Under the pieces are notes generated by a model. It saw only the letters and a program-made list of their open reading frames with translations. It was not told where the DNA came from and made no database searches. From Planctomycetota bacterium (GTDB lineage Bacteria; Planctomycetota; UBA8108; UBA1146), in NCBI GenBank assembly GCA_036125855.1, contig JAYZTT010000001.1:7917-71916 (forward strand): a stretch of 64,000 nt of DNA. Direction: 5' to 3'. Numbering within the stretch: the stretch's first letter is position 1; every line of letters begins with the position of its first letter. Made by a program: the position numbers and the translations under genes. Shown here in pieces: positions 7,101-56,713 of the stretch.

Positions 7101-7200
7101 GAAAGGCGCCGTCATCTTCCCAGCGACCTGGCTGATCTCTATGGGCCTGGAGTAACTCCTTCGCACGTTCCAGAGGTGCAGTGGCATCAGGATCAGACAT
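4192..7200 (-). CDS. Membrane Ser/Thr protein kinase with a C-terminal coiled-coil and TPR array
   Basis: Hanks kinase motifs LGEGGFGVVY, VALKVIK, HRDLKPANIIV, DFGLAKA and LEYMSPEQ. One TM segment (ALTATALVFIALTAGISWALV), then about 550 aa of TPR-like helical repeats. GAGGAA RBS. Confidence 0.9.
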   Translation of the reverse strand: MSDPDATAPLERAKELLQAHRDQPGRWEDDGAFLDDPQHQSLRDVLKKLLDESESTTAQDIETIEFTPDPNGAETVASHPPPPPTATVPGSDLAQQIGPYRILESLGEGGFGVVYRAEQRGDVRRQVALKVIKKGMDTQQVLARFDAEKNALSLMNHPNIAGVIDSGQTEDGQPYFVMEYVDGTPITTYCQKERLSLEERLQLFQQVCRGIQHAHSKSVVHRDLKPANIIVTRQDGKAVPKIIDFGLAKALGGALTEMTVVTQQRQILGTLEYMSPEQARSGGSDIDTKTDVYALGVILYELLVDTRPFDLRKIGDLEILRVIEQEDPLRPSLRFSSMEMRSSETVAESRGLNSKRMSQLLSSELDWIVLKALEKKRDRRYETPLDLAADLERHLVGHEPVQARPPSLGYRFRKFQRRYRAALTATALVFIALTAGISWALVERSKAEEARSIAVEQKQKADTSAKIAQQRSEQLQQVTDFQSEQLASINPFKMGKSLREGLEKKISSSAERRGIGQEETSGMIESYQDMMLGVDFTGLALETVDEHLFQRSLDAIEKQFATQPQLKARLLQTVATLMKETGLLERAVDPQQTALEIRQQELGKEDRDTLQSLEEFANLIKERGKLDESEPIHHEIYQQRSNLFGEDHPETLRALANLGDLKGRQGDFPLAMEYLETAISKMKTVSGEDHLDRVEAMSDLAVIKTRLYELQEATDLYSFVYQVRRDSFGDKNRLTIKALSNYGGALVHMTDSENRIVKGEELLLQALRDAREVLGDEHRITQLVFVELITLYGITGRYAESEELAREALQTCERVFGPNHPQTIHFCYFHGEILFEKGNYLESELAINEANMRQVNLYGENALHSLSSKSHIAALQIKRGEMQKSGEILHSVLPVIVENYGDDHHQSHVGRSRLGLWYTLNDKLDLGLEYLERAVEGFSDLPFSHPDKKRASFYLAMLLDQEGKVERASRLMEEVVAHSFEQEMEYQERTTLLDRIDRKLQR

Positions 7201-12059: not shown

Positions 12060-15000
12060 GTGCCGAGTCCGACCCCCGATGCGCTGCTCAATCACCGCTA
12101 CCGTCTCGATGTACAGATCGGGCGCGGAGGGATGGGTGATGTGTGGCGGGCCCGCGATGAGGCCAGAGATGGTTCTCCGGTGGCGGTCAAGATGATGCCG
12201 GAGGGTCTCGATGAGACCGATCGTCGGCGCTTCGAACGAGAAGTCCGGGTCCTCCAGGAAATCTCCCACGCCCATGTCGTTCCCCTGCTCGATGTCGGCT
12301 GGAGCGGCGATGCACTGTTCTATGTGATGGAGTATGTCAGTCCACTTTCTCTGGAAGATGTCCTGCAGGCTCATCCAGGCGGCCTGCCGGCAAAACACTG
12401 GAAGTGGTTGATCGAAAGAGCCGCAGAAATTCTGGATGCCCTGTCCCATCTCCATCACAAGCGCCTGGTGCACCGCGATGTAAAACCGAGCAACATCTTG
12501 CTGCGGTTTGCCGATCAGACCGCCACCGATGGCGGTGACTGGCCCCATCTGGATGAGAGCAGTGCACTTCTGGCCGACCTCGGATTGGTGGCTCGGGCCG
12601 ATGCACAGAGTGCCCTGACCCAGAGTGCGCTGGGTACCCCCCAGTACATGGCACCAGAACAAATTGAAAGCCCGACCGCTGTCGATGAACGAAGCGACCT
12701 GTGGTCGGTGGGTGTGCTGCTGTACCGAGGTCTTGCCGGCCGACTGCCCTACACACGCCTCAGTGATGCGCTGTCCAGGAAAGATCCTGAACCCCTGAAA
12801 AACGTGCCAGATGTGATCCGGGATGCGATCGCATCGCTGATGCAATTCGAACCCCATCGACGGCCCCCGGATGCCAACCATGCCGCTTCCCTGTTACGGG
12901 GAGCCATCGAAACCGGACCGGGAACGATTCCCGCCATCCGTACCTCGCGCCGTGCCATGCCCGCCTTCACCGGTAGAGACTCAGCACGGCATACGATGCT
13001 GGAAGCGGCGCGACAGGCCGCTCGGGGTGAAGGTTGCTGGGTCCATCTCGAAGGAGAACGAGGCCACGGCAAGACCTGGTTGGTGAGTCGCTCTGATTTC
13101 CGCTCCCGGGCCCTGGTCGAGGAACAACTGCAACACTACAGCGCTCCCTTCGACGGAAGAGAACCCCACTCTGGATTCCGATTGCTGCTACATCAGGTGT
13201 TGAGTCACATCGAAAGAAACAGCGGTCCACAGCATGCCGTCGAAGCCCTCGGTCGCTGGGGTGCCCACCTGGCCACCGCATTTCCAAGGCTTTGTGGTCA
13301 GGGCTGGATCGAAGGTTGTCCGGCCATCGAGGATTCACCACCTCCCGAGATCATCCAGGAACGGGTTTTCGAATCGGTGGTTCAGGCTCTATGCGCCGAT
13401 GCAGAAGTGGAGCCGCGTACCCTGGTACTGGAAGATCTTCATTACTGCGACGAGTTTGACATCGAACTTCTTCGTCGATTGATCCTCTCTTCGATGGAAC
13501 TTCCGGTGCTGGTCCTCACGACCGGTCGCCCCATCGCCTCGGTACGCCTCCAGAACCTGGCAAGACTACGCAATGAAATTGAAGTGGAAGATCGCTTCCG
13601 ACTGGTTCCGGTCGAACCGTTCGAAATTTCTGAGAGCGTAGATTTACTTCGGTCGATGTTGATTCCGGATGTACCCCTGACCGAAGAACTGTCGCAAGCT
13701 CTGCACCAGAGAAGTAATGGTGTCCCGCTGATTCTGGTGCAACTTCTCGGTTCCCTGTGGAGTCGCGATGCGATCCAGTTTAAATCGGGAAAATGGACCA
13801 CCGAAGATGAAGGACTCGCCGATTTACCGGTACCAGAAGCAGCCAGGAGCCACTTCCTTCAACTGCTGGAGGAACTGACAGCACCCCAGCGAAGAGTTCT
13901 CGACGTCGCTTCCGTGATGACCGGCCTGGTTGATTTTGATGTCTTGCTGGAAGCCAGTGGAATCGACGAATTTGAACTCGATGGACACGCTCGGATCCTG
14001 GTTCGCAATGGCATCCTCCAGGAGGAACAGGGCGGATACCGCTGGGGGCACAGCTGGGAACAGGAAACGGTAAGAGCGGAACTGACTCAACCGATGCTGC
14101 GCCGGCTCAATCTGCGGCTCGGAAAAATCCTGGAGCAACGATATTCCGCGGAAGAAGCACCGGTTCAGGCGATCGCCGAACACTTCTCCCTCGGCGGCGA
14201 CCAGGAAAAGGGACTGCAGTGGTTGCTCAAGGCTGCTGATCGGGCGGAAGCGGCCTGGGCTCATGATCGTGCACTTGAGCTGTGCGAACGGGCACTGACC
14301 AGCGCGCCCGATGACGATGCCCGGCGTGAACTACTGGGCCGCATCGGTGATCTCCGCCTGCGCACCGGTGATCCGGCGGGCGGCAGGCAGGCCTTCACCC
14401 AGGCGATGGGATTATGGACCGCCATCGAAGGACGACTCCTTGCCGACTCGGAAAAGACCTCCGATGAGGAACTGGGACGATACACCTCTCTCGTACAGCG
14501 TATCGGAGAGGCACAGATGCACGCCGGCGAGTACCAGGATGCGCTGGCGAACTTCCACAAAGCGCACAATCTTGCCGAGGCCGCACAGATGCCTCATCTG
14601 ATGGCTCTTTCCCTGTGTCGACAGGGCGCTGTCCACGCCTTCGCCGATGATCTGACCGCCGCAAAAGCAGCCTACGAGGGAGCGGTCGATCTCTGTCAGA
14701 AAAATACCGATCTCGATCATCCGCATGTGGTGGCGCTCATCGGTCTTGCTTCCATCGATCGGCGAATGGGAATGCTAGAAAGTGCTCTCTCTCGCTGCGA
14801 TAAAGCACTCCCGCGCGCAGAGAAGATCGACAATCCGATGCAACTGGCGGGACTGTGGGGACAGCGGGGAACTCTGTTTCAAAACCTGGGGCGCACCGAG
14901 GAGGCGATCAATGCCTACGATAAATCTCGTTCCCTGCGCCAGGAATCTGGAGATCGGCGGGGGCTCGCCATCACCATGATGAATCTGGGACGAATTCTGG

Positions 15001-15851
15001 TCAACATCGGTGACGTCCAGCGCGGCCAGGAGGAACTGGAGCGGTCACTGGAACTGTTCCGCGAAACAGGAGATTTGCAGGGACGGGTCCTGACACTCGG
15101 TAATCTCGGTAGTCTGCGCTTCCATCGAGGGGACCATAAATCAGCGCGTGAGATCCTGCTTGAATACCTGGAAATCTCGCGCGGTCATTCTCTCAAACGA
15201 CCGGAAGCCGATGCCCTGATCAGCCTCGGCATGCTCGAACTGGAACGACATCAGATCGATGACGCCAGTACTTACCTGCAACAAGGGCTCGAGGCGTTTC
15301 AGGCGGCGGGCGATTTACAGGGAACCCTCCACGCACAGGTCCAGGAGTCGCGTGCCGCCGGTCGACGAGGCGATCCAGAAATCGCCCTGAAGGTGGCACA
15401 GGAAGTGGCCAAGGAAGCTCGAGCAGCAAAGGGTATTCCGATCCTGGTCGAGGCTTTACGGATCCAATCAGAAGCTCTCCGGGACCTCAATCAACTCGAA
15501 GAAGCCCTCTCGAAAATCGAAGAGGCTCTGGAGTTGTGTCGAGATCAACGGCTCCCCTATGCAGAGGGTTGCTGCTGGCGAACTCTTGGAAAAGTTCAGA
15601 GAGACCGAGGATTCGAATGGGCCGACCGCGCAGGGGTCGCCTTCGAGAAGGCAGAAAAGGTATTTGAAGCCAACGGTGCTCGACACGCCCTGGCGGTCAC
15701 CCGAAGAGAGTTCGCCTCGTTCCTGCTGCTGGTCGAGGAGCCTCAACTGGCGTTGGAGCAGCTTCAGAGTGCCCTCACCATCTTTGATGAGCTGGATTGT
15801 TCTGAAGAGAAGAAACTGACGGAAAACATCCGAGAGAGCATTGAACAGTAG
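12060..15851 (+). CDS. Ser/Thr protein kinase fused to a P-loop AAA/STAND-type ATPase and a long TPR array (PknK-like architecture)
   Basis: Kinase motifs IGRGGMGDVW, VAVKMM, HRDVKPSNILL, DLGLVA and GTPQYMAPEQ. P-loop GERGHGKTW. More than 500 aa of TPR-like repeats. GTG start. Confidence 0.9.
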   Translation: MPSPTPDALLNHRYRLDVQIGRGGMGDVWRARDEARDGSPVAVKMMPEGLDETDRRRFEREVRVLQEISHAHVVPLLDVGWSGDALFYVMEYVSPLSLEDVLQAHPGGLPAKHWKWLIERAAEILDALSHLHHKRLVHRDVKPSNILLRFADQTATDGGDWPHLDESSALLADLGLVARADAQSALTQSALGTPQYMAPEQIESPTAVDERSDLWSVGVLLYRGLAGRLPYTRLSDALSRKDPEPLKNVPDVIRDAIASLMQFEPHRRPPDANHAASLLRGAIETGPGTIPAIRTSRRAMPAFTGRDSARHTMLEAARQAARGEGCWVHLEGERGHGKTWLVSRSDFRSRALVEEQLQHYSAPFDGREPHSGFRLLLHQVLSHIERNSGPQHAVEALGRWGAHLATAFPRLCGQGWIEGCPAIEDSPPPEIIQERVFESVVQALCADAEVEPRTLVLEDLHYCDEFDIELLRRLILSSMELPVLVLTTGRPIASVRLQNLARLRNEIEVEDRFRLVPVEPFEISESVDLLRSMLIPDVPLTEELSQALHQRSNGVPLILVQLLGSLWSRDAIQFKSGKWTTEDEGLADLPVPEAARSHFLQLLEELTAPQRRVLDVASVMTGLVDFDVLLEASGIDEFELDGHARILVRNGILQEEQGGYRWGHSWEQETVRAELTQPMLRRLNLRLGKILEQRYSAEEAPVQAIAEHFSLGGDQEKGLQWLLKAADRAEAAWAHDRALELCERALTSAPDDDARRELLGRIGDLRLRTGDPAGGRQAFTQAMGLWTAIEGRLLADSEKTSDEELGRYTSLVQRIGEAQMHAGEYQDALANFHKAHNLAEAAQMPHLMALSLCRQGAVHAFADDLTAAKAAYEGAVDLCQKNTDLDHPHVVALIGLASIDRRMGMLESALSRCDKALPRAEKIDNPMQLAGLWGQRGTLFQNLGRTEEAINAYDKSRSLRQESGDRRGLAITMMNLGRILVNIGDVQRGQEELERSLELFRETGDLQGRVLTLGNLGSLRFHRGDHKSAREILLEYLEISRGHSLKRPEADALISLGMLELERHQIDDASTYLQQGLEAFQAAGDLQGTLHAQVQESRAAGRRGDPEIALKVAQEVAKEARAAKGIPILVEALRIQSEALRDLNQLEEALSKIEEALELCRDQRLPYAEGCCWRTLGKVQRDRGFEWADRAGVAFEKAEKVFEANGARHALAVTRREFASFLLLVEEPQLALEQLQSALTIFDELDCSEEKKLTENIRESIEQ

Positions 15852-19475: not shown

Positions 19476-20618
19476 TCAGGCCTCCAGCAAGTGTCTGGCG
19501 ATGATCAGGCGCTGGATCTGATTGGTTCCCTCGTAGATCTGCATCACCTTGGCATCGCGCATCAATTTTTCTACCGGATACTCTTTTGAATATCCGTAGC
19601 CGCCGAACACCTGCACCGCATCGGTGGCCGCTTTCATCGCAATGTCACCGGCAAAACATTTGGCCATCGAGCACTGCTTGGTGTTTCGTTGCCCCTGATC
19701 GATCATCCACGCTGATTGCCAGGTCAACAGTCGAGCCGCTTCCACATCCTTGGCGATGTCCGCCAGGATGAACTGGATCGCCTGCTGTCGGGCGATCGGC
19801 TTGCCAAAGGCTCTACGCTCCAGCGAATAACGAGTCGCCTCCTCCAGCGCTCTGCGGCCCACCCCCACCGCCGAGGCCGCCACTCCCGGGCGGGTCCGGT
19901 CAAAGGTACGCATGGCGATCCGAAATCCTTGACCTTCTGTGCCGATCCGATTGGCGGCCGGGATCTCCACGTCCTGAAAACTGATGAAGACGGTATTGGA
20001 TGCCCGTTGCCCCATCATGTCTTCTTTCTTACCCATCTCGATTCCTGGTGCATCGGCTGGCACCACGAAACAGGTAATCCCTTCGTAACCACTACCGGGA
20101 TCGGTGGTGGCAAAAAGGGTGAAGTATCGCGCCTGAGAGCCCCCCGACACCCATGCCTTGTTGCCGTTGAGAATGTATGAATCACCCTTGCGTACGGCGG
20201 AAGTGCTCAGTGAAGCGGCATCACTGCCCGCGTCCGGTTCCGACAAGCAGTAGGAAGCGGTGCAATGCTCAGAAGTTAACATTCCAAGCCACTTCTTCTT
20301 CTGGTCCTCATCGCCACCGATCTGGATCGGTACCGAAGAGAGATTGTTGACGGTCATGCTGATCGCCATTCCCGAACAACCGAAGGCCAGCTCCTCGGTG
20401 ATGAGAGCCTCCTCCATGTGGCCCAGAGATCCTCCGCCATACTGGTCATCGATGGTGACATTCAGTAAACCGAGCTCAAAGGCCTGGGCAGCGATGGCTG
20501 TGGGATACTCACCGGTACGGTCGTGGTGCTCTGCCACCGGAATGATCTCGTTTGCGACAAATTCTCGGGTCATGTCGACCAGCATCCGCTGTTCGTCAGA
20601 GAGCTCAAAGGATACCAT
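19476..20618 (-). CDS. Acyl-CoA dehydrogenase (short/medium-chain type)
   Basis: Start at the internal ATG (MVSFELSDEQRMLVDMTREFV...). C-terminal QIYEGTNQIQRLIIARHLL. The upstream 100 codons of the ORF are non-protein-like. Confidence 0.9.
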   Translation of the reverse strand: MVSFELSDEQRMLVDMTREFVANEIIPVAEHHDRTGEYPTAIAAQAFELGLLNVTIDDQYGGGSLGHMEEALITEELAFGCSGMAISMTVNNLSSVPIQIGGDEDQKKKWLGMLTSEHCTASYCLSEPDAGSDAASLSTSAVRKGDSYILNGNKAWVSGGSQARYFTLFATTDPGSGYEGITCFVVPADAPGIEMGKKEDMMGQRASNTVFISFQDVEIPAANRIGTEGQGFRIAMRTFDRTRPGVAASAVGVGRRALEEATRYSLERRAFGKPIARQQAIQFILADIAKDVEAARLLTWQSAWMIDQGQRNTKQCSMAKCFAGDIAMKAATDAVQVFGGYGYSKEYPVEKLMRDAKVMQIYEGTNQIQRLIIARHLLEA

Positions 20619-20772
20619 CGGGTGCCTTTCCAGCAGCAGGCCCATATCCGGCAAAAAGTCGAGCAAGAGCAGACTGATACCGCTCTCTGCGGTACTTTGT
20701 CTGCTGGGAGCGCAAGGCGCAAGAGCCAGTGGCCTGGTCACTGAGGGAAGTACATTTCGAGAGGAAAAACGG

Positions 20773-21846
20773 TTGGCGAAGGTACTGGTGGCGATGAGCG
20801 GTGGGGTTGACTCCAGCGTTGCTGCCCAATTACTGAAGGAGGAAGGGCACGAAGTGATCGGTGCCTTCCTGCGTCTCGGCGATGGAGGCCAGGCGGCCGA
20901 AAAGAGCCGCGCTTGCTGCACCGTTGAAGATGCGATCGATGCTCGACGTGTTGCCGATCGCCTCGAAATCCCCTTCTACTCTTTCAACTACGCCGAGCAG
21001 TTTCGAAAGATCATCGATTATTTTGTCGATGAGTACCGGGATGGGCGAACACCCAACCCGTGCGCCCGCTGCAACCAGTGGATCAAGTTTGACGTTTTTC
21101 ATGATCTGGCTCGTGATCTCGGAGCGGAATTCGTGGCCACCGGTCATTACGCAAGAGTATTACAAGCCGATGACGGGCCACGATTGGCGCGAGGACTCGA
21201 CCTCGATAAGGACCAGTCCTATTTTCTCGCCACGGTTCCCTACTCGGTATTGAGAGAATGTCTGTTCCCGGTTGGAGATCTTCGCAAGCCAGAAGTACGC
21301 GATATCGCGGGCTCTGCTGAACTCCCCGTCGTTCATAAAGCTGAGAGCCAAGAAATTTGCTTTGTCCCGGCAAACGATTACCGCCGTGTGATTCGCAAGG
21401 AAGCTCCCGAAAGTTTGCTGGAGGGAGACATCGTCGATGAATCCGGGGACAAGCTTGGTACTCATGAAGGCTATGCGGCCTATACCGTCGGCCAGCGACG
21501 TGGCCTGGGTATCGCCGCCACGGAACCTCGATACGTCGTTCGCACCGAACGCGAGACCAATCAAGTGGTGCTCGGCCCCCGTGACTCCTTGCTGGAAACG
21601 AAATTCTGCATATCGGAAATGAACTGGCTACAACCGGAAGTACCGCAGCTACCGTTGCGTTGCACGGTTCAAATCCGCCATGGAGGTACACCTCAAGCTT
21701 GTACGGCCCAGAGCTGCACCATCGATGATCAAGAGTTGATCGAGGTCATTCTGGATGAGCCGATCTTTGCCATTGCTGCAGGACAAGTGGCGGCTCTTTA
21801 TGATGGAGATGTTGTTCTCGGGGGCGGTTGGATCGAGAAGATCTGA
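20773..21846 (+). CDS. mnmA: tRNA 2-thiouridine(34) synthase MnmA
   Basis: PP-loop VAMSGGVDSSVAA, NPCARCN, and GHYAR. TTG start at 20773 after GAGGA. The long upstream part of ORF 20260.. is antisense to the dehydrogenase gene. Confidence 0.88.
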   Translation: MAKVLVAMSGGVDSSVAAQLLKEEGHEVIGAFLRLGDGGQAAEKSRACCTVEDAIDARRVADRLEIPFYSFNYAEQFRKIIDYFVDEYRDGRTPNPCARCNQWIKFDVFHDLARDLGAEFVATGHYARVLQADDGPRLARGLDLDKDQSYFLATVPYSVLRECLFPVGDLRKPEVRDIAGSAELPVVHKAESQEICFVPANDYRRVIRKEAPESLLEGDIVDESGDKLGTHEGYAAYTVGQRRGLGIAATEPRYVVRTERETNQVVLGPRDSLLETKFCISEMNWLQPEVPQLPLRCTVQIRHGGTPQACTAQSCTIDDQELIEVILDEPIFAIAAGQVAALYDGDVVLGGGWIEKI

Positions 21847-21921: not shown

Positions 21922-24900
21922 CTAGTCAGATTCCAGGACCTCTACGGTTCCAGATGATTGCTCCGGCACCATCGATTCGGCATCGACAACAACGACTGTT
22001 CCGATAGCCGGCGTCCCCAGCGTGTCACAGAAATCTACCGTGGTGGTGCCCACGGCCAGTCCCTCGTAGGTCGCCAGATTGAGCTCGTATCCGAACCCAG
22101 GCGACAGCGAGAAGGAAGATGTGAAACTGATCACCACTCCGACGGTAAATCCATCCGGATGTACCTGAATGATGTTGAAGTCGGGCGACGAACCATTATT
22201 CATCAAGGCAATATCAGCGCCGTCATTGACCTCGAAGATGTTCAACCTAGCAGAGTCATGACAAACTCCAAAACTCCATGCCTGGACATCAGCACCATTA
22301 TTATCAAAGGTGATCGAGACCGTACCCGTGCCAGCCTCCTGCAAGGAAACATCCGATGCTCGTATGAGATAGTCGGGAGGCACTGTCACGTGAATACAAC
22401 TGGCACAACTCATCGAGCCAGTTCCACCTGGTCCTGTCACGACCAACGTCACCGTGTAATCACCCTCCTGGGTGTAGGTGTGCGTCGGACTCTGAATCGC
22501 TGACACGGCACCATCTCCAAAGTCCCACAGCCAGTTATCAATCGGCCCGATCGATGTATCTATGAAATTGACTGCCAGGTTGTAGTTACCACTCATCGGA
22601 GTCGCAATGAAACTGGCCACTGGAGCCGGATCGTTCACCGTGATGCTGAAGGAGCCAGCACCGATATTCCCTGAGTTGTCAACAGCGGTGTAGGTCACCT
22701 CGGTGACACCTACCGGGAACAGATCTCCGGGGAGATGAGTGCTGGTGAATGAAAGCACAGCACAGTTGTCACTGGCGAGTGGCTCATCCCAGATCACGAT
22801 TGCATCGCTCTGGCCAGTGTCTGCCGTCACGGTGATCTCTGTTGGCATTCCGGTGATGGCAGGTGCGACGGTATCCTCGACCGTCACCAGGAAGGAACTC
22901 ATCGAAGTGTTTCCGTTACCATCCGTGGCGGTATAGGTCACAAGGGTCGCTCCGACTGCGAAGCTATCACCCGGTGAATGATCCCCTGTTAACATCACAG
23001 TACCGCAGTTATCGGTCGCCATCGGATCTGGCCAGCTTGCTACTGCACTACAACTATCGGTGGTGTCCTCCAGCAAGATATCGGCGGGCATGCCCAGTAT
23101 GCTGGGATCTTCCTCATCGGAAACGGTAACAACAAACGAAATCGAGGAGCTGTTACTACTGGCGTCTGTCGCGGTGTAAGTCACCGTGGTCGACCCGATT
23201 GGGAAACTGTCTCCTGAATCGAAGTTGCTGGAAAGAGACACTGATCCACAGTTATCGGCTGGGATCGGATCACTCCACATCGCTGTCGCGGTGCACAGGC
23301 CTTGATCCGTGGTCAAATCCAGTGCAGCAGGAATTCCCGAGATGCCTGGAGCCTCGTCATCATGGATCGTAACGGTGAATGATCCGGTTGTAGAATTCCC
23401 CGAGGTATCACTCGCGGTATAGGTCACAACCGTATCGCCAAGTGGGAAAACAGTTCCGCTTGGTAAGTTGCTCGACAGGGTCAAAACTCCGCAGTTATCA
23501 CTGGCGGTCGGTTCCTGCCAGAACACCGAAGCACTACAAAGACCCGGCTCGGTATCCATCGTGACCTGGTCGGGCAATCCTGAAAGTGTCGGTTCTTCCG
23601 CATCAATCACCGTAACGGAGAAGGTATCCATCATCATGTTGCCGGTGTCATCGACAGCCATGTAGATCACCGTGGTAGTTCCCTGCTGGAAGGTAGCACC
23701 GGAGGCATAATCACCACTGATGAGCGCTCCAGGACAGTTATCGGTCACGGACGGCTCAGCCCACGTTGCAACTGCACTGCACTTTCCCGGATCCGTTTCC
23801 AGGATCAGGTCAGTGGACAATCCGACAATGGCGGGATCCTCGTTATCCTCGACCGTGATGGTGAAGGAACGAATCGAGCTGTTGCCGCTACCATCGAGTG
23901 CCGTGTAGGTCACCGTAGTAACACCAAGTGGGAAACTATCGCCGCTGCTGTGATCACTGCTCAGATCGGCCACAGCACAGTTATCAAGTCCAACAGGCTC
24001 GGACCAGGTCGCAGTAGCCCCGCACAACCCGGGATCTGTACTCAGGAGCATATCATTCGGTACTGCGGAGATCGTTGGAGCCTCTGTATCGGTGACGCTA
24101 ATCGAGAAGGACATCGAGCTCGTATTGCCGCTATTGTCGGTAGCGGTAAAGCTCACAAGCGTCGTTCCCACTTCAAACCTGTCTCCCGGGGAGTAGTCAC
24201 TCGTCAGGGTACTACCCCCGCAATTATCCGTCGCGATCGGATCAAGCCAGAAGTGCATCGCATCACAAGATCCATTGTCATTTTCCAGTACTACGTCCAT
24301 CGGCATCTGAGAGATCTGGGGATCTTCGATGTCACTGACCGTCACGGTGAACATATCCATCAGCATGTTTCCGCTCGAGTCGATGGCCATGTAGATCACC
24401 GTAGTGGTACCCAGTGAATAGAAATCGCCTGAACTGTGATCGCCATTGAGAGTCACCCCAGCGCAGTTATCTGTCGCGAGCGGTTCATCCCAGTTCACCA
24501 CGGCACCGCAGGAACCTGGATCATTCTCCAGGAACAGATCAGCGGGCATTCCGGAAAGTGCTGGATCCTCGGTATCGGCCACGGTGATCAGGAAAGAAGC
24601 CGTGGCACTATTACCACTGTCATCCATCACCGTGTAGGTAACCTGAGTCGTGCCCTGAGGAAAGCTATCGCCACTGCTGTAATCACTCGTCAGATCCAGG
24701 GCAGCGCAATTGTCTGTCGCCAGTGGAAGTGACCAGGTTGCCATTGCACTGCAACTACCCGGATCGTTCTCCAGCACCTGGTCCGATGGCATCAACAAGA
24801 TGAGGGGAGATTCAGTATCATTCACCGTCACCGTGAAGCTCAGCGAACTACTGTTTCCACTGGAATCGGTTGCAGTGTAGGTCACCGTCGTTGTACCCAC

Positions 24901-26694
24901 GTCAAAAATCTCGCCAGGAGTATGGTCACTGCTCAGTGTTACTCCAGAACAGTTATCCGTCACCATGGGATCTGCCCACATATGCTGAGCACCGCACATT
25001 CCGGCGTCATTACCAATTACTACGCCCATCGGCATCTGGGAAATCACCGGCTCTTCGGTATCGATAACGGTCACGCTAAACGAATCGGTACTGGTGTTGC
25101 CACTCGCATCGGTAGCCGTAAAGGTAACGGTTGTCGTTCCGAAGGAAAAACTCGCTCCCGAAGCATGGTCAGCGGAAAGGGTAACTCCTGGACAGTTGTC
25201 AGCGGCCGCTGGAAGGTCCCAGAGATGGATCGTATCGCACGATCCTTCAGCAGCGGAGAGAGTCGCGTCTGCAGGGATGTCGGCCAGAACAGGAGCTTCC
25301 AGGTCCTCTACCGTGATGGTGAAAGAACTGGAAGTACTATTACCAGCGGCATCCGTTGCCGTGTAGGTCACAACGGTAGAACCGAGAGGGAATGTATCTC
25401 CCGAGCTGAAGTCACCCGTTAAATCAGCCAGGCGAGCGTTGTCGGTTGCGCTCGGTTCATCCCAGGTGGCTACTGCCTGACAGGTCGCCGGATCGGTAGC
25501 GAGTGTCATATCAGCCGGCATATCAAAAATCACCGGCGCTTCGACATCGATCACGGTGATGCAAGATTGACAAATTGCTGTATCGGTTCCACCAGGACCC
25601 GTGACCAGCAAGGACACGGTGTAGATACCGGGCTGCTGATAAAGGTGAACCGGATTCAATTCAGTTGATTGATTATCAGCGCCACTGCCTGGATCCCCGA
25701 AATCCCATAGTCTGGAGTCGATGGCACCAGTTGAAAGATCAGACAATTGAACCGTCAACGGACCATCGCCCGAGGTGGGATTTGCACTGAACTCTGCTAC
25801 CGGCGGAGCATCGATGACCGTGATGCACGCATCACATACCATCGTGTCGCTTCCACCGGGACCGGTCACCAGCAATGAGACTGTATAGACCCCTGCCTCG
25901 GTGTAAAGATGACCTGGATTCAGCTCATCTGAAGTAGCACCATCGCCGAAGTCCCACAAACGGGAAGTGATGACACCGGTAGAGGCATCGGTAAAGGTGA
26001 CCAGTAAATCTTCAACTCCACTGGTCGGATCCATATCGAACCCAGCCGTTGGTGGCGGATCCAGCACCTCGATGCAGGAATCACATGTCGAGGTATCGGT
26101 TCCTCCCGGACCGGTGACCGTCAAGCTCACCGTGTAAATTCCAGCCAACGTGTAAAGGTGGGAAGGATTCAATTCGGTTGAAGTGGCTCCATCCCCAAAA
26201 TCCCACAACCGGCCATCGATGGGACCTGTTGAATCGTCGGTGAATTGAACAAGGAGATCGTAAGTACCACTTGTAGGATCCATCTGGAAGTTGGCAGCAG
26301 GAGGGGGTGCCGTTACGACAATGCAAGAGTCGCAGACGAAAGTATCTTTTCCCACTGGCCCGGTCACGGTCAAGGAAACGGCGTACTCACCACTTTCAGT
26401 GTAGGTATGAGAGGGATCTTGCTCTGTCGAAGTGGTCCCATCACCGAAATCCCACAGATAGGAATCGATGTCACCCGTCGAGGTGTCGGTAAAAACCACC
26501 TCGAGATCGTAGGTTCCACTGGTTGGCGTAGCGTCAAAGCTCGCAACCGGGGCCACCTGAACGTCTGCGCTACCTCCACCACCACCACAACCAGCGGTGA
26601 ACAGGGTGAGTAACACAGCTAAAGACAAGAATAGAGAGCCGCGACCCACACCCGTCACAGAGAATGAAAGATTAGTGTTCATTCCGTACCTCAT
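21922..26694 (-). CDS. Giant cell-surface protein with signal/lipoprotein-like N-terminus, 4 PKD domains, 12 HYR repeats, 1 PKD domain and a C-terminal cohesin-like domain
   Basis: N-terminus SLFLSLAVLLTLFTAGCGGGGGS. PKD signature WDFGDG...YTVSLTVTGPGG occurs 5 times. The roughly 81-aa HYR unit (..P.D....D.G.C.A...W..P.ATDNC......S....G..F..G.T.VTYTA.D.SGN...SF.VTV.D) occurs 12 times. Candidate starts are GTG 26709, ATG 26694 and ATG 26682. Confidence 0.9.
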   Translation of the reverse strand: MRYGMNTNLSFSVTGVGRGSLFLSLAVLLTLFTAGCGGGGGSADVQVAPVASFDATPTSGTYDLEVVFTDTSTGDIDSYLWDFGDGTTSTEQDPSHTYTESGEYAVSLTVTGPVGKDTFVCDSCIVVTAPPPAANFQMDPTSGTYDLLVQFTDDSTGPIDGRLWDFGDGATSTELNPSHLYTLAGIYTVSLTVTGPGGTDTSTCDSCIEVLDPPPTAGFDMDPTSGVEDLLVTFTDASTGVITSRLWDFGDGATSDELNPGHLYTEAGVYTVSLLVTGPGGSDTMVCDACITVIDAPPVAEFSANPTSGDGPLTVQLSDLSTGAIDSRLWDFGDPGSGADNQSTELNPVHLYQQPGIYTVSLLVTGPGGTDTAICQSCITVIDVEAPVIFDMPADMTLATDPATCQAVATWDEPSATDNARLADLTGDFSSGDTFPLGSTVVTYTATDAAGNSTSSSFTITVEDLEAPVLADIPADATLSAAEGSCDTIHLWDLPAAADNCPGVTLSADHASGASFSFGTTTVTFTATDASGNTSTDSFSVTVIDTEEPVISQMPMGVVIGNDAGMCGAQHMWADPMVTDNCSGVTLSSDHTPGEIFDVGTTTVTYTATDSSGNSSSLSFTVTVNDTESPLILLMPSDQVLENDPGSCSAMATWSLPLATDNCAALDLTSDYSSGDSFPQGTTQVTYTVMDDSGNSATASFLITVADTEDPALSGMPADLFLENDPGSCGAVVNWDEPLATDNCAGVTLNGDHSSGDFYSLGTTTVIYMAIDSSGNMLMDMFTVTVSDIEDPQISQMPMDVVLENDNGSCDAMHFWLDPIATDNCGGSTLTSDYSPGDRFEVGTTLVSFTATDNSGNTSSMSFSISVTDTEAPTISAVPNDMLLSTDPGLCGATATWSEPVGLDNCAVADLSSDHSSGDSFPLGVTTVTYTALDGSGNSSIRSFTITVEDNEDPAIVGLSTDLILETDPGKCSAVATWAEPSVTDNCPGALISGDYASGATFQQGTTTVIYMAVDDTGNMMMDTFSVTVIDAEEPTLSGLPDQVTMDTEPGLCSASVFWQEPTASDNCGVLTLSSNLPSGTVFPLGDTVVTYTASDTSGNSTTGSFTVTIHDDEAPGISGIPAALDLTTDQGLCTATAMWSDPIPADNCGSVSLSSNFDSGDSFPIGSTTVTYTATDASSNSSSISFVVTVSDEEDPSILGMPADILLEDTTDSCSAVASWPDPMATDNCGTVMLTGDHSPGDSFAVGATLVTYTATDGNGNTSMSSFLVTVEDTVAPAITGMPTEITVTADTGQSDAIVIWDEPLASDNCAVLSFTSTHLPGDLFPVGVTEVTYTAVDNSGNIGAGSFSITVNDPAPVASFIATPMSGNYNLAVNFIDTSIGPIDNWLWDFGDGAVSAIQSPTHTYTQEGDYTVTLVVTGPGGTGSMSCASCIHVTVPPDYLIRASDVSLQEAGTGTVSITFDNNGADVQAWSFGVCHDSARLNIFEVNDGADIALMNNGSSPDFNIIQVHPDGFTVGVVISFTSSFSLSPGFGYELNLATYEGLAVGTTTVDFCDTLGTPAIGTVVVVDAESMVPEQSSGTVEVLESD
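22630..25542 (-). repeat. Intragenic tandem array of 12 HYR-domain coding units (about 243 nt each)
   Basis: Counted from the translated protein (aa about 390-1360). The repeat boundaries E/D-x-P-x-I/L recur every roughly 81 aa. Confidence 0.8.
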
Positions 26695-26710
26695 AGACTT
26701 TCCCACCACT

Positions 26711-26730: not shown

Positions 26731-27068
26731 AATGCACTCATCAAGGTCAATGTGGAACGAGAGAAGTTCCCCCTTGAAAACCAGACCCCTTTACCGCTTT
26801 CCCCGAAACTGTGAGGGAGGTCCTGCACTCACAACTCGCTATCTATCGATATGTGGTCTCAGGCCCTCATCCGTCTATAATTTTCTGGAGGCATGCGTAG
26901 GAACGGCGCAGATGATAATTATTCAGGTCTAGTCAGAAGAGTTCGGTGTGCCTTGATAATCGATCAGAATGGATCAACAGGAATTGATGATCAGAGGATC
27001 GGTTCTTGAGAGGGATGGACAGTCTGATGGAACGAAAGATCGCCGAAATGTAGCCCAGATCGGCTCAA

Positions 27069-28037
27069 TCAGCGTCTTCGCTTGGCCATGATCTGATCGG
27101 CGAACTGCTGTAATTGTTCCGTGATGGTCTTTACCCCGTTTGCGGTGATCTTGTCACGTGTACTTTCGACCATTTGAACGAAATGAGCACGCTCTTCCGG
27201 TTGAACCGGGCATCCGATGTTGCCTTCGGGGCCATCACCAGTGACCAAAGCCTTGCCAGTAGAATCCAGAATCACCATCCAGGGGATTCCACCGCGATCC
27301 GTTCCACGCAAACGCCTGGCCACTTCCTTGCCATTGCTCATCCGATCAACATCAATTTTGAGATCGATATAATCACGAGCCATTACTTCCGCAACTTTTT
27401 GGGTCCCGAGGAACTCCTCGAGTCTGCCGCACCATCCTCACCACGGCGCTCCCAGGTGAACCAGCACCTTACGACCGTCCTTTTTTGCCTGTTCCAGGGC
27501 AGCTGCAAGTTCCTTTTCGGCATCCTGAGGAGGAGCCTTCTTTGATTGCAGAAAGGCCTCGACCTTGGCACTGTCGTGATGATCGTCTTTCTCAAGATCT
27601 CCGGTGTTCTGGTTCGCCACGACGGCTCCATTGCCATCGAGAATCGTCAGATAAGGAACACCTTTCTTCTTCAAAGAAGCTCCATACTTGTTGACGATGT
27701 CGATGTTCTTATCGAAGCGCCCGATATCGACCTTGACCAGCTCGTATTCGTATCGAACCGTGCGAGCTACAGTTCGGTCTTTCTTGAAGAACTCATCGAG
27801 CTTGACACACCAACCACACCAGTTGCCACCGTACACGACCAACACACGCGTGTTGTTTTTCCTGGCTCGAGCCACTGCTTTCTCGATATCGGCCGATGCG
27901 TTCGCCTCGACATCATAGACGGCAATCACTTGTTTTTTGGGTTTGCTGGGTTCCGTTTCCTGACCCATCACGGGTACCTCGAATACCAGCAGGGTCAAAA
28001 TCACCACCAGTGACAATGCATGGATGTGGTTTTTCAT
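27069..28037 (-). CDS. Secreted tandem thioredoxin-fold protein with an in-frame UGA at 27438..27440 (candidate selenocysteine, UxxC). The ORF track splits it into 27438..28037 and 27069..27383.
   Basis: Signal peptide MKNHIHALSLVVILTLLVFEVPVMG. Domain 1 has GNWCGWCVKLDEFF. Domain 2 reads GAPW-TGA-GWCGRLEEFL in the same frame, and that frame continues without further stops into ORF 27069..27383. Confidence 0.6.
27405..27422 (-). promoter_or_regulatory. SECIS-like hairpin downstream of the in-frame UGA
   Basis: The mRNA CUCGAGG-AGUU-CCUCGGG forms a 7-bp stem (one G-U pair) with a GU-containing tetraloop. It starts 15 nt after the UGA. Confidence 0.4.
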
Positions 28038-28231
28038 CGATGAGTTCCCCGATCAATCTCTCATGAGTCCCTGAAGGTCCAGGCAAACGAAGGTACGGTC
28101 AATGTACTCTCCGGACCTCGATCAGGATAGAATTATTAAAGTGCGCCGGAAATCTGTCAGAGGATCCTATGCGCTGGCATGAACAGGCTTCTTCGAGGAT
28201 GCTACCCCAGACCAGAGAGGACTGAGGACCG

Positions 28232-43514: not shown

Positions 43515-44801
43515 TTAACGAGCACCAGCCACATCGGCCGGTGTGATTTCAGTTAATCCACCCATGTACGGCACTAACACCTCGGGAATTCGAATCGTAC
43601 CATCCGCTCTCTGGTTATTCTCAAGTATCGCAATCAGCACCCTGGGAGTCGCAATCGCCGTATTGTTGAGCGTATGACAGAAATACACCTTACCATCGTT
43701 TCCGCGATATCTCAGGTCCATCCGACGAGACTGGTAATCATAAAATCTCGAAGCGCTGTGGGTCTCTCCCCAGCCTCGCGAAGGCATCCACGCTTCAATA
43801 TCGAACTTACGGACCTGCCCCATTCCCAGGTCGCCGGTACAGACGTCAACCACCCGGTACGGGATCTCCATCGCCTGCAAGATCTCCTCGGCATTATCCC
43901 GAATGAACTCGTGATGCTGGATCGATTCTTCCTCGTCAGATTTGCCGATGATGACCTGCTCTACCTTGTTGAACTGATGGATTCTGTAGAGCCCACGGGT
44001 ATCTCTACCGGCAGCACCTGCTTCTCGTCTGTAACATGTGGACCAGCCACAGTAGCGTAACGGCAACTGATCTTCCTCGAGGATCTCTCCCGAGTGAAAG
44101 GCTGTAACCGGCACCTCGCTGGTTCCTGTCAGGTACAGATCATCGCGCGGAATTTCATAGGTTTGCTCTTCACCGCCAGGGAAGTATGCCGTTCCGAACA
44201 GAGGTTCGTACTTCACCATCGTCGGGACGATCATCGGGGTGAACCCGCGCTGGATGACATGATCCAGTGCGAATCGTAACACCGCCAGCTCAAGTACCGC
44301 TCCAGCGCCCTTCAAGATGTAGGTCTGGGAGCCGGCAAGTTTTGAAGCGCGCGGGAAATCAACGATGTCGAGATCTTGTCCCAGCTCGACATGGTCCTTC
44401 GGCTCAAAATCAAACTCGGGGATCGTTCCCACCACTCTCAACTCGACATTGTCACTGTCATCGGTTCCGACCGGGACATCGGCTGCCGCCGGCATCGGAA
44501 CGCAGGCGTGGATGGCATCCAGCTCTTTCACGACAGTCTTCAACTCGTCTCCGAGTGATTTGATTCGTTCTGCTACCTCTCCCATCCGGGCGATCGCCTG
44601 TTGCTTGGCATCCCCTTCGAGAGTTGCGATCTCTTTTCCGGCATTCTTCTGTTCATGCCTCAGTTGTTCCTGCTCGGTCAGCAGACCCTTGCGTTGGTCA
44701 TCGAGCTCGATCAAGCGATCAAGATCTACCTCCACTCTCTTGTCGGAGGCACCTTGGCGAACTCGATCCAGTTCAGCCCGGATAAACTTGAAGTCGAGCA
44801 T
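43515..44801 (-). CDS. serS: Seryl-tRNA synthetase
   Basis: Start at the ATG 44801 (MLDFKFIRAELDRV...) after AGGAG. Class II motifs YLTGTSEVP, CYRREAGAAGRDTRGLYRIHQFNKVE, and GETHSASRF. Confidence 0.93.
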   Translation of the reverse strand: MLDFKFIRAELDRVRQGASDKRVEVDLDRLIELDDQRKGLLTEQEQLRHEQKNAGKEIATLEGDAKQQAIARMGEVAERIKSLGDELKTVVKELDAIHACVPMPAAADVPVGTDDSDNVELRVVGTIPEFDFEPKDHVELGQDLDIVDFPRASKLAGSQTYILKGAGAVLELAVLRFALDHVIQRGFTPMIVPTMVKYEPLFGTAYFPGGEEQTYEIPRDDLYLTGTSEVPVTAFHSGEILEEDQLPLRYCGWSTCYRREAGAAGRDTRGLYRIHQFNKVEQVIIGKSDEEESIQHHEFIRDNAEEILQAMEIPYRVVDVCTGDLGMGQVRKFDIEAWMPSRGWGETHSASRFYDYQSRRMDLRYRGNDGKVYFCHTLNNTAIATPRVLIAILENNQRADGTIRIPEVLVPYMGGLTEITPADVAGAR

Positions 44802-44901
44802 TGGAACTCCTAGGGGAAGCATCCTTGCACCCTGACCTCTGGAGCAAGGTTCCCGCCGAGCGAGGATAGACCCCCGACCGCATCTCTTCAATCGAGCCAG
44901 C

Positions 44902-46701
44902 TCAGGGAGATCGAGAAGTTCCGATGGCGACCTTGACCGCCTCGACTCCCAGTTGACTCCATCGAGCCAGTTCAACGGTAGCCTGCCGCTGAAGATCCTG
45001 GTCGTGCTCCAGGGATCCGAGCAGGGCCGGCACCAGCACTTCCTGGGCTGCGATCAGATCGCCGCTGTGGGCCAGCTCACGGGCTTCCTGCAGGGTGGCA
45101 TCGAATCTTGCGCGGGCGATGTGGCTCGCCAGTTGTTCCAGTTCACGGTCGAAGGAACCGAGAATTCGATGCCGGGCCTGGTCGATCTCGGCCTGGGTGA
45201 TGGGGAGACCACCGCGTCCAGGATCGGACGGGCTGAGCTCGAGGGAGAGCTCGATCGACTGGCCGATCTCACGGCCTCTGTCGTCGATCAGCCATACCGG
45301 AAGGGTGCCACTGACGCGACAGCGCTCACCGGAATAGCCCGGTACCCACTCTTGCCAGACTCCCCGTGAGCGTTGGCCGGCACTCTCGGAGAGACGTCGA
45401 GAGATCCGCCACGCTTCCGAGCCGTGGAACGAAAGTCGCGCAGATATCAATATCGCTTTCTGAGGCGGTGCTTGAAGCCACAGGGCAGCCAGTCGCTGGA
45501 TGTCATCGATCAGCAACTCCCAGCGCTTCACATCCGCGATATGCGCGGGTGATCGGGTCCAGCGTCTCCCGACCTCACCGAAGTGGACGGAAGGAAACCG
45601 GAACTCCTCTTCCCTCGAGATCGACAGGGTCGGATTCCCTGCGATCAACAGGGTGACATCGTTGCCTGGAGATGGAATCGGTAGATTCCCTCGAATGATC
45701 AGCGGGCGAAGGGGTCGAGTGATTTGTTCGCGCAGTTTCCCCAGCTTCTCTGCCACCGGCTCCCCTTCCTCGAGGAGTCGAGCCAGCTGTAACAAGGCGG
45801 TACTGGATTGCCGTGCATCGAGTAACTCGGCAGCGTTGTGCGCGAGACAATCTCGAGCCCACTGGCCCATTTCCATCGCCAGCAAATCATCGGGACAGAT
45901 CTCTCTCAGCTGTTGCAACAGTTGCAGGACTGACGAGGGCTCGTCGCGATCTCGGGCTCCTCTCAGTTCAGAACGGATCCTCGCAACAATTCGTTTCTTG
46001 AGGGAAGACACGTCCTGAGCCAGGACACGATCACCAGGGTATCGCCTAGTCAATGGCTCCAGCATGCTCAGGGCGGCCACTTCATCGCCAGCCATCAACA
46101 GCTGTTCTGCTTCCTGAAAAACCGCGTCGCAATCGGTCCGGCGATCGATCTTTCGGCGCCAGCGATCAAGAACCTGCCTGACCTTTCCAGGAGGCTCGAT
46201 TCCTGCAGCGATACATACGACCGGAATCCGCTGCAAACGAGAATAGATTACTTCCATCGCAACGGAGCCGCCGTAACGGTCAAGGACTGCCAATCGATCT
46301 CGTAAATGGCGCCAGCATCGATCACGAAGATGGTGACTGAATGACTGGGAAGAATCGAGCAGTTGCTCGGGCCTGGCAAGCTCACGTTGTGGACCGGTCA
46401 ACAGCAGTAGTTCAAGAAACGCATCTTCCCAGCGAGACTGGAGGTAGGCACGATGAATAATCGAGATCCGCTGGCGATCATCCTGGTCGACGATGGGGAG
46501 GTCGCTGGCGGCTAGCTGCTGGGCATACACCGGTGTCATCCGGGACGGAGAGATTCCGCTTCCCAGAAGTAAGACGAAAATGAAGAATACACACATCCAG
46601 TTGCGCACTGATTGACCCCATCGGCAGACTCCCCGGATCGCGCGAGGAGCAAGGACTGGCAAACTGGAATCCGGACGAACCGGACCCCAGAAGCCTATCA
46701 T
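44902..46701 (-). CDS. Hypothetical protein with an N-terminal signal/anchor; no recognisable family
   Basis: A long uninterrupted ORF in the operon frame. Hydrophobic N-terminus MCVFFIFVLLLGSG. An Arg/Leu-rich helical sequence. The start is either 46701 or 46596. Confidence 0.6.
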   Translation of the reverse strand: MIGFWGPVRPDSSLPVLAPRAIRGVCRWGQSVRNWMCVFFIFVLLLGSGISPSRMTPVYAQQLAASDLPIVDQDDRQRISIIHRAYLQSRWEDAFLELLLLTGPQRELARPEQLLDSSQSFSHHLRDRCWRHLRDRLAVLDRYGGSVAMEVIYSRLQRIPVVCIAAGIEPPGKVRQVLDRWRRKIDRRTDCDAVFQEAEQLLMAGDEVAALSMLEPLTRRYPGDRVLAQDVSSLKKRIVARIRSELRGARDRDEPSSVLQLLQQLREICPDDLLAMEMGQWARDCLAHNAAELLDARQSSTALLQLARLLEEGEPVAEKLGKLREQITRPLRPLIIRGNLPIPSPGNDVTLLIAGNPTLSISREEEFRFPSVHFGEVGRRWTRSPAHIADVKRWELLIDDIQRLAALWLQAPPQKAILISARLSFHGSEAWRISRRLSESAGQRSRGVWQEWVPGYSGERCRVSGTLPVWLIDDRGREIGQSIELSLELSPSDPGRGGLPITQAEIDQARHRILGSFDRELEQLASHIARARFDATLQEARELAHSGDLIAAQEVLVPALLGSLEHDQDLQRQATVELARWSQLGVEAVKVAIGTSRSP

Positions 46702-54977: not shown

Positions 54978-55670
54978 TTACTCCGTTTCCTTCTGAAGGC
55001 CTCGCAATTTTGCCAGATTGGCAGCGATTCCTCCCGCTTTCGCGTTTTTGACCTCGATCTGCTCGAGGTTATTTTCTAATTCTTCTTCCGCCGGTTTTGA
55101 AAAGATCGCAACGAGCGCCTCTTCCGACGGAACTTCTTGTACTTGTGATGAGGATCCACCGGATCCTTTCGCAACCTTGCTAGCGAGGGCATCGATGCTC
55201 TTCTGGATTCCCTCGATCTGATCTCCCGTTGCACTGGTGGGCTCGGTTCGAGCGTCTTCGAGGGCTTCCTTGACAACGGAACGAAGCTGGTCGGAGTCCA
55301 GATTGCTCGACGGCTCGCTACTATGATGTTGCGCTTCCTGGAGCTTTTCCTGCAGATCAACAGCCTGCTCACGAAGCGTGTGAATACGCTTCTCGTACTT
55401 CTCCTGCTGCTTTTCTTGCTCGGATTTACGCGCTTTCACCAGGCGAGTGAATTCACTTCTGGCTTCATCGCGAATCCTGTCACGATCTTCTTCATTGATC
55501 TCGCTGAGACGTTCCTCGACCACATTCTGGACCGCCTCGTCAATGAGATTGAGCACAGCGGCTTTATCGAGGACGTTGACGGTCCTGTGCCCTCTGCGAG
55601 CAAGTTCATCGATGGCCACGGTACTGGTTCGCTTTTTTAGTGCGTCCGGCACATCAAATGTATGACTCAT
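54978..55670 (-). CDS. Acidic coiled-coil protein, hypothetical
   Basis: Start at the ATG 55670 (MSHTFDVPDALKK...). A long heptad-like E/K/Q/R-rich centre (EDRDRIRDEARSEF...EQEKQQEKYEKRIHTLREQAVDLQEKLQEAQ). It ends 6 nt before the actin-like gene. Confidence 0.65.
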   Translation of the reverse strand: MSHTFDVPDALKKRTSTVAIDELARRGHRTVNVLDKAAVLNLIDEAVQNVVEERLSEINEEDRDRIRDEARSEFTRLVKARKSEQEKQQEKYEKRIHTLREQAVDLQEKLQEAQHHSSEPSSNLDSDQLRSVVKEALEDARTEPTSATGDQIEGIQKSIDALASKVAKGSGGSSSQVQEVPSEEALVAIFSKPAEEELENNLEQIEVKNAKAGGIAANLAKLRGLQKETE

Positions 55671-55888
55671 CCGGCCATCCGTCCTTGAGGCACTCCATCG
55701 CGAAATCCGCTCAGGATCTTGCAACTCGATGCCAGACGATCCATGTCACGGATCGATCCGATTACGAAGGCCCCCAATGGAGGCCAAGAAGAGTAGCATC
55801 GGGTGTGAAAAGGCGGCAAACCGGCAAATGGGGCGAGAGAAGGGGAAAGGTCCTCAGAGGCTGCTCGTGCTCAGCAATCGGTGATTCT

Positions 55889-56596: not shown

Positions 56597-56713
56597 CAAA
56601 TCTCCCATCGACGGATCCAGTCAAAAAGCTCGACTGGATAGTCTAATAGCATTACTCGAGAAAGGAAGGCTCATCGGGCTCGCACTCGATCAGATTGGTT
56701 CATCACGGTCAGC

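Follow-up and report, generated by a model that had tools for sequence, protein, structure and literature searches.

Does the open reading frame (ORF) that begins at position 28037 on the minus strand of the 64-kb stretch of Planctomycetota DNA analysed here (the whole of which we call the window) really end at the TGA where it is annotated to stop, or is that TGA read as selenocysteine (Sec) on the way into a second ORF in the same frame? A preliminary description of the locus favoured Sec, proposing that 27069..28037 encodes a signal peptide and two tandem thioredoxin-like domains, the second of them with a UxxC motif followed in the mRNA by a selenocysteine insertion sequence (SECIS). From comparative sequence evidence, we consider it highly probable that 27069..28037 (minus) codes for a true selenoprotein and that its SECIS is functional. 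A single gene very probably spans both ORFs and encodes a secreted thiol-disulfide oxidoreductase with two thioredoxin-fold domains, in the second of which Sec would be the attacking active-site residue.

On the minus strand, read over 26900..28200, the first ORF (28037..27438) starts with the ATG at 28037 and runs for 199 codons to a TGA (27440..27438) placed just after the peptide G-A-P-W. Past this codon the same frame stays open for 122 further codons, to a TGA at 27071..27069. The second listed ORF (27383..27069, with its ATG at 27383) is in frame with the first, and the two are parted, as first described, by the TGA and exactly 18 sense codons, among which there is no in-frame ATG, GTG or TTG. 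The N-terminus of the first ORF reads as a putative signal peptide, with basic residues, a hydrophobic core and small residues ahead of Q26; an equivalent hydrophobic N-terminus is present in all orthologues.

The position of the internal stop is the reason for suspecting Sec. Domain 1 carries the redox motif GGNWCGWCVKLDEFF, i.e., GGNW-CGWC-VKLDEFF (residues 70–84), in which the codon of Cys74 is TGT (27818..27816). The corresponding motif of domain 2 is GAPW-[TGA]GWC-GRLEEFL (residues 196–210), and the stop accordingly sits, as the preliminary description had it, exactly where the paralogous domain has its first catalytic cysteine.

A protein search showed that the closest relatives (74–99% identity) are all 198–220 residues long and end where the window ORF ends; relatives at 42–57% identity, from metagenome-assembled genomes of Planctomycetota and Phycisphaerae, are mostly 305–376 residues long and contain both domains. 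We collected the DNA of 20 truncated relatives (L001–L020) from NCBI, ENA, JGI, Tara and Logan assemblies. The homologous codon was TGA in 20 out of 20, and in all relatives except contig L011 the frame beyond it remained open for about 122–126 codons. The TGA is kept at all related loci of this kind, more than 30 in number, which come from independent assemblies of marine Planctomycetota. The terminal stop varies among TGA, TAA and TAG in these relatives; the internal TGA is constant. The exact window ORF with its TGA context recurs in an independent Logan assembly of SRR26496207 (L181), and a 99% relative was found in both GCA_965662215.1 and SRR28397355.

The read-through protein was aligned with full-length homologues, and all 17 of these have Cys at positions 200 and 203. 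A scan of one genome per species yielded 80 loci, with a readable domain-2 motif in 78; the first codon of the motif was TGC or TGT in 72 of these and TGA in six (L021–L024, L026 and L092), and two more TGA forms, L120 and L131, came from metagenomes. The flanks G-A-P-W and G-W-C are conserved around position 200, and the domain-1 motif starts with Cys at every locus where it was found. The column is thus a Sec/Cys pair.

These data also bear on the possibility of a pseudogene or of an assembly or sequencing error, with TGT or TGC turned into TGA in a decaying gene. A single base parts TGA from either Cys codon, but the same TGA is found in the more than 30 loci, in an identical context, across independent NCBI, ENA, JGI, Tara and Logan assemblies, which excludes a sequencing error or a recent nonsense mutation. 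Moreover, synonymous sites are saturated (see below), the downstream domain is strongly constrained, and no frameshifts or extra stops occur save in L011. We give this explanation practically no credence.

Three individual loci deserve a comment. Contig L011 (3001–3850) has an extra in-frame TGA 81 codons past the Sec codon, giving a read-through of 282 residues; its near-identical NCBI counterpart, L012, shows the full read-through, with many N's, and the extra stop in L011 is probably an assembly error. In the ENA contig L017 (1202–2152) the 93-residue downstream ORF occurs twice, at 1202–1483 and 1871–2152, with a fragment of the C-terminal domain of MnmA in between, suggesting either that the region was duplicated locally or that the assembly is at fault here. 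A Phycisphaerales homologue (L083:3001–4407) has three thioredoxin-like domains, namely two NWCPWC copies of the domain-1 type followed by APWCPWC; the number of domains in the family is therefore not fixed at two.

Selection acts on both sides of the TGA. Among six diverged lineages, the proportion of synonymous differences (pS) was 0.6–0.8, i.e., saturated, and the proportion of nonsynonymous differences (pN) was 0.07–0.16 upstream and 0.11–0.25 downstream of the TGA. In the 18 bridging codons, pN between lineages was 0.06–0.19. The start Met of the second ORF is Leu in most orthologues, and gene callers choose differing downstream starts in different genomes. Since the bridging codons are under selection without containing a start, and since the Met is not conserved, the downstream part must be translated as a continuation of the first ORF rather than as a separate gene. 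Purifying selection on both halves and on the bridging codons thus bears out the translation through the TGA that had been postulated.

The same observations speak to the conventional interpretation, in which translation stops at the TGA to give a 199-residue single-domain protein and starts anew for the downstream ORF. All public annotations take this view, and TGA is the commonest stop in the window, where it terminates 19 of the 40 ORFs. However, two independent genes would leave unexplained the purifying selection on 18 start-less codons, as well as a downstream ATG that is mostly Leu and on which the callers disagree. A true stop would also be expected to drift between TGA, TAA and TAG, as the terminal one does and the internal one never does. 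Furthermore, the full-length Cys homologues are single proteins, and a single Pfam domain spans the TGA, leaving a downstream piece without strand β1 and active site. We therefore regard two genes as very improbable.

The consequence for annotation is the one foreseen at the outset, namely that standard pipelines mishandle the gene. All public records that we examined split the locus at the TGA: they contain an ORF of 198–220 amino acids, filed as a truncated "thioredoxin family" protein or as "hypothetical", and most add a separate ORF of 72–108 amino acids that has no Pfam match. As annotated, marine Planctomycetota genomes thus hide the half of this conserved periplasmic redox enzyme that holds the active site.

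Pfam searches with the read-through protein confirmed the tandem thioredoxin-like architecture. Thioredoxin_7 (PF13899) matched residues 48–134 (E 1.3e-25; 89.8 bits against a cutoff of 27) and Thioredox_DsbH (PF03190) matched residues 161–313 (E 2.1e-17; 64 bits against a cutoff of 27); a match to Thioredoxin_2 (PF13098; 4.7e-12) was also obtained. As the TGA is codon 200, it lies within the Thioredox_DsbH match, so that one domain model spans it. The best solved relative of domain 1 was PDB 3fk8 (phmmer, E 4e-16), and domain 2 matched PDB 2kuc, 2ju5 (DsbH) and 3ira. Judging from these matches, both domains are assignable to the Thioredoxin_7/DsbH branch of the thioredoxin fold.

An AlphaFold model was made of P0003, a Cys homologue 56% identical to the window protein. 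The model (predicted local distance difference test 89, predicted template-modelling score 0.81) shows two complete thioredoxin folds, each with its motif at the start of helix α1, and is disordered over the N-terminal signal region. In domain 2, a helix (178–191) and a strand (195–201) precede the CGWC (205–208), which stands at the start of helix 206–216, and helix 178–191, strand 195–201 and CGWC all lie upstream of the equivalent of the second-ORF Met. The model agrees with the earlier proposal that the second ORF alone lacks the first strand and the active site; by this model, it would miss helix α0, strand β1, the active site and most of α1. A Foldseek search with the model recovered 3fk8 and DsbH-type domains, and 2ju5, 3ira and 7tkv were matched by both sequence and structure.

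Within NCBIfam, no model reached its cutoff. The score for DsbH (NF043050) was 60.5 against a cutoff of 190, and the protein fails the DsbH equivalog criterion by its two-domain architecture too. For DsbD (NF001419; 40.1 against 330), TsoB (NF045694; 59.5 against 805) and the Trx7/PDZ selenoprotein family (NF041199; 17.1 against 300), only the thioredoxin-like part matches. Judging from its domains, it most likely works as a thiol-disulfide reductase or isomerase and is secreted or periplasmic; Sec200 would act as the attacking nucleophile and Cys203 as the resolving residue. No gene neighbours conserved across the family were found; the functional assignment therefore rests on domain homology, and no pathway partner can be named.

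Immediately 3' of the TGA, the mRNA can form the hairpin CUCGAGG-AGUU-CCUCGGG, with a 7-bp stem that starts 15 nucleotides (nt) past the UGA and a GU-containing loop, as had been read correctly in the preliminary description. The stem includes one G–U pair, and the loop begins 22 nt past the UGA. Folded in isolation, it has a minimum free energy (MFE) of –9.7 to –10.8 kcal/mol (z about –2.2). According to a published model for bacterial SECIS elements (bSECIS), an apical loop of 3–9 nt should sit on an upper stem of 4–16 bp and have G at its first or second position, most often with G or U after it, at a UGA-to-loop distance of 16–37 nt and with an MFE of –7.5 kcal/mol or below (PMC13188914). 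The window hairpin agrees with this model on all four counts, with its 4-nt AGUU loop on 7 bp, its G at loop position 2 followed by U, its spacing of 22 nt and its MFE.

Two tests of conservation singled out the hairpin. The first, on synonymous sites, used seven sequences from six diverged lineages and the 161 columns in which a degenerate amino acid is invariant. The same codon was kept in 16 of the 161 columns (10%), and these include an unbroken series of five, codons +6 to +10 after the TGA (CTC GAG GAG TTC CTC), from which the hairpin is formed. The second test searched for invariant runs in a 903-nt codon alignment of ten clade members with 44–85% protein identity, where 27% of the nucleotide columns are invariant. 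The longest invariant run was the 16-nt core of the hairpin, CTCGAGGAGTTCCTCG (27422..27407); the second longest, TGGTGAGG, surrounds the TGA, and all others measured at most 5 nt. Where the stem does vary, its base alternates between U–G and U–A, or, in GGC variants, has a bulged U and an added G–C pair; in L026 and L120 an eighth stem pair is added.

The hairpin was also compared between Sec forms and Cys forms. Among the former, 13 out of 13, many of them close relatives, have a suitably placed hairpin with a stem of 6 bp or more and a G-first loop; among the latter, 14 out of 72 do. The Cys sequence most similar to that of the window (L038, CUCGAGGAUUUCCUCG) gives 5 bp, –6.6 kcal/mol and a loop without G; no hairpin is formed by LEDWM, the most frequent Cys type. 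In some Cys forms, sequence coding for LE[ED]FL already forms most of the hairpin.

In a neighbour-joining tree, the window, L001–L024 and L026 form one Sec clade nested among Cys forms. The metagenome contig L120 (44% identity) has the window Sec clade as its nearest relatives and an identical hairpin. L092 is placed elsewhere among the Cys forms, and the nearest relatives of L131 are Cys forms too (55–61% identity). Both have TGA at the same codon, each with a different following peptide and a different hairpin: in L092, GACGGCCA-GUU-UGGCCGUU (8 bp, loop 25 nt past the UGA, –11.6 kcal/mol), and in L131, GCC.GGCU-GGA-AGCC.GGC (loop 17 nt past the UGA, –9.1 kcal/mol). Three lineages thus pair the TGA with a G-first, small-loop hairpin at SECIS distance. 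A metagenome search seeded with L092 returned no close relatives of it and only two further Sec forms, L120 and L131.

By these comparisons, the Sec form is derived from a Cys ancestor, and two or more other branches of the family underwent the same replacement at the same site. The change from Cys to Sec is seen three times at one codon of domain 2 and never in domain 1. The family therefore offers a compact natural experiment on the origin of Sec from Cys, with a Cys control domain built into the same polypeptide, and in each case codons of the active-site helix make up a hairpin of their own kind. As a separate observation, L120 (from 1115 upstream) has CGWS instead of CGWC in domain 1, i.e., it has lost the resolving Cys there, and has kept UGWC and the identical hairpin in domain 2.

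Several findings weigh against our interpretation. We found selA, selB, selD and tRNA-Sec neither in the 64-kb window nor in any of the loci retrieved. ARAGORN detected no tRNA-Sec in the window or in any of the loci, and tblastn with the E. coli SelA, SelD and SelB sequences gave only generic GTPase matches (in L031 and L033), for SelA and SelD without a positive control; Pfam annotation of the 40 window ORFs, a firmer negative, revealed no sel gene. The hairpin is short, and in contexts of 41–101 nt its folding z is about 0 relative to shuffled sequence. Whole-region folding energies were –18.3 kcal/mol for Sec forms and –17.5 kcal/mol for Cys forms, with no discrimination. Given the z of about 0 in long contexts and the similar Sec and Cys energies, we dropped thermodynamics alone as evidence. 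Neither a gathering-threshold Rfam search of the window nor a permissive search of 27250..27550 retrieved a SECIS or any other relevant family. The conserved peptide LEEFL explains part of the nucleotide conservation, but not that at synonymous sites. Finally, the number of independent lineages is just three, because most Sec-form loci are close relatives.

Some of these points would suit the chief rival that survives, a read-through of the UGA without Sec, by a near-cognate tRNA (inserting Trp, Cys or Arg) or a suppressor tRNA, with the hairpin as a generic stimulator. Such a mechanism would need no Sec machinery and is compatible with a small hairpin that fits no Rfam model; moreover, the evolutionary data show continued translation and constraint on the RNA, not the identity of the residue. 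What makes it unlikely, in our view, is the site itself. The TGA stands at the nucleophilic Cys of a CxxC and has replaced Cys three times independently, as expected for Sec, whereas Trp or Arg at position 200 would destroy the redox site and an inefficient near-cognate insertion of Cys would be no better than a TGC codon. In addition, the hairpins of all three lineages obey the bSECIS rules of spacing and of G in the loop, and related Planctomycetes do possess Sec machinery (PMC4807772). We accordingly assign Sec, by inference, to UGA-200.

As to the machinery, some Planctomycetes have complete selA/selB/selD sets, and split-ORF selenoprotein candidates described as "thiol-disulfide isomerase-like thioredoxin" exist in this group (PMC4807772). 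The complete sets make Sec decoding plausible, short of proof, in the lineage of the window. A reassigned genetic code was considered and ruled out, TGA being the ordinary terminator of 19 of the 40 window ORFs, and a mechanical scan for other TGA-split ORFs in the window returned no credible selenoprotein besides this gene. The window also encodes a seryl-tRNA synthetase (43515..44975, minus), an enzyme that charges tRNA-Sec as well; it is a housekeeping enzyme and no evidence for a Sec trait.

For the selenoprotein, the following sequence of events can be proposed. At UGA-200, SelB with Sec-tRNA(Sec) would bind the hairpin downstream, in competition with release factor 2, and the ribosome would then proceed through the 122 further codons, as the pattern of selection shows. 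The product would presumably be exported to the periplasm by means of its signal peptide. A periplasmic redox role is suggested because both domains are homologous to periplasmic disulfide reductases or isomerases of the DsbH and DsbD-gamma type. There, domain 1 would contribute a classical dithiol (CGWC) and domain 2 a selenol-thiol pair (UGWC), the latter possibly cycling through a selenenylsulfide.

Because the UGA follows a complete domain 1, a selenium-dependent switch with two outputs is conceivable: when selenium or SelB is low, termination might yield a functional, single-domain CGWC oxidoreductase of 199 residues, to which read-through would add the Sec domain when selenium is sufficient. 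We consider this improbable; if it were true, the recurrence at one site, never in domain 1, and the hairpin-like sequence in some Cys forms would mark the site as one predisposed to such a switch.

No other class of prokaryotic selenoproteins is as large as the UxxC proteins of the thioredoxin fold, which marine metagenomes contain in abundance (PMC2398784, PMC13188914, PMC1794560); among marine bacteria, they are the commonest kind of selenoprotein (PMC2398784). That Sec can evolve from a redox-active Cys has likewise been described (PMC1794560). Candidates in this field are judged by the presence of a Sec/Cys pair, a SECIS-like structure, homologues with TGA and homologues with Cys (PMC12013277), each of which we find for this gene. 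It joins the known UxxC class, possibly as a new subfamily; WP_011366075.1 is a published representative of that class. With other bacterial UxxC selenoproteins it shares Sec in place of the first Cys of a CxxC in a thioredoxin fold, a SECIS hairpin that closely follows the UGA and is itself part of the coding sequence, a large excess of Cys homologues over Sec forms, and a marine setting; it differs from them by its tandem Thioredoxin_7/DsbH domains, with Sec only in the second.

DsbH, a periplasmic disulfide reductase of Chlamydia (PF03190, NF043050, PDB 2ju5), and the DsbD gamma domain have the same fold and type of motif, and the same predicted periplasmic location, but the window protein is no equivalog of them, has no membrane domain, is duplicated in tandem and contains Sec. 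PDB 3fk8, a structural-genomics entry for a 'disulphide isomerase' of Xylella fastidiosa, superposes on domain 1 with a TM-score of 0.85 on the target, a root-mean-square deviation (rmsd) of 2.1 Å and 31% identity (Foldseek); it is a single domain with a Cys CxxC motif and its function is uncharacterised. The Trx7/PDZ family NF041199 and the TsoB rhodanese/DsbD-fusion family NF045694 are curated selenoprotein families with a Thioredoxin_7 or DsbD-gamma-like domain, but they match weakly and in part, and the window protein is devoid of their PDZ, rhodanese or membrane portions. Eukaryotic protein disulfide isomerases (PDI) also combine two redox-active thioredoxin-fold domains in one secreted polypeptide. 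However, Foldseek gave rmsd values of 9–17 Å and TM-scores of 0.2–0.36 for them, and the window protein has no b/b' domains. In view of this poor superposition, its domain arrangement is not the same as that of PDI.

Overall, the gene is a well-supported, if fairly ordinary, example of a common class and does not change the current understanding of selenoproteins. It is mildly distinctive in its combination of a Cys domain with a Sec domain in tandem, in the threefold recurrence at one codon and in hairpins formed by codons of the active-site helix. It also marks this uncultured lineage as a probable selenium user. The coordinates of its features are collected in Table 1.

Table 1. Features of the read-through gene and their positions in the window
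Feature	Position	Strand	Basis
Complete read-through coding sequence, 322 codons plus terminal TGA (27071..27069); signal peptide, thioredoxin-like domain 1, linker, thioredoxin-like domain 2	27069..28037	minus	sequence, translation, selection on both halves
Putative Sec-type signal peptide or membrane anchor, MKNHIHALSLVVILTLLVFEVPVMG, about 25 codons	27963..28037	minus	sequence reading only
Thioredoxin-like domain 1, residues 48–134, CGWC at 27818..27807	27636..27896	minus	Pfam Thioredoxin_7, PDB 3fk8
Thioredoxin-like domain 2, residues 161–313, DsbH/DUF255-type, contains the TGA	27099..27557	minus	Pfam, PDB matches
In-frame TGA, codon 200, proposed Sec codon	27438..27440	minus	invariant TGA in Sec-form relatives, aligned with invariant Cys
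U-G-W-C redox motif, TGA-200 as first position	27440..27429	minus	
18 bridging sense codons from TGA to second-ORF ATG, rest of active-site helix, GWCGRLEEFLGTQKVAEV	27384..27437	minus	
SECIS-like hairpin: 5' arm 27422..27416 CUCGAGG, loop 27415..27412 AGUU, 3' arm 27411..27405 CCUCGGG	27405..27422	minus	

Synteny around the gene was observed within the close clade only, with a SEC-C protein, a glyoxalase and a sulfatase on one side and, in most loci, a giant PKD/HYR protein on the other. In the window, this immediate downstream neighbour (21922..26709, minus) is a protein of 1595 residues that consists of PKD and HYR repeats and has an N-terminus resembling that of lipoproteins. It adjoins the gene in L001–L012, L019–L020 and L182 and is absent in L015–L018, where other genes are found instead.

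Elsewhere in the window, the ORF at 53778..54971 (minus) matches the Pfam family 'Volactin' (PF25216) over its full length (E 2e-87) and is followed by two ORFs without a Pfam match, 54978..55724 and 55889..56608. Two large Ser/Thr kinases are fused to TPR arrays (4192..7200, minus, and 12060..15851, plus), the second having an AAA_16 ATPase domain in addition. For the ORFs at 7354..10047 (minus, 897 residues) and 44902..46701 (minus, 599 residues), no Pfam family was found at E ≤ 1e-5. In the MnmA ORF (20260..21846, plus), listed with 528 residues, the Pfam domain begins at residue 174, and the 5' part overlaps an acyl-CoA dehydrogenase ORF on the opposite strand (19476..20921, minus). Since MnmA orthologues are called at 350–410 residues, the true start is probably near 20780.

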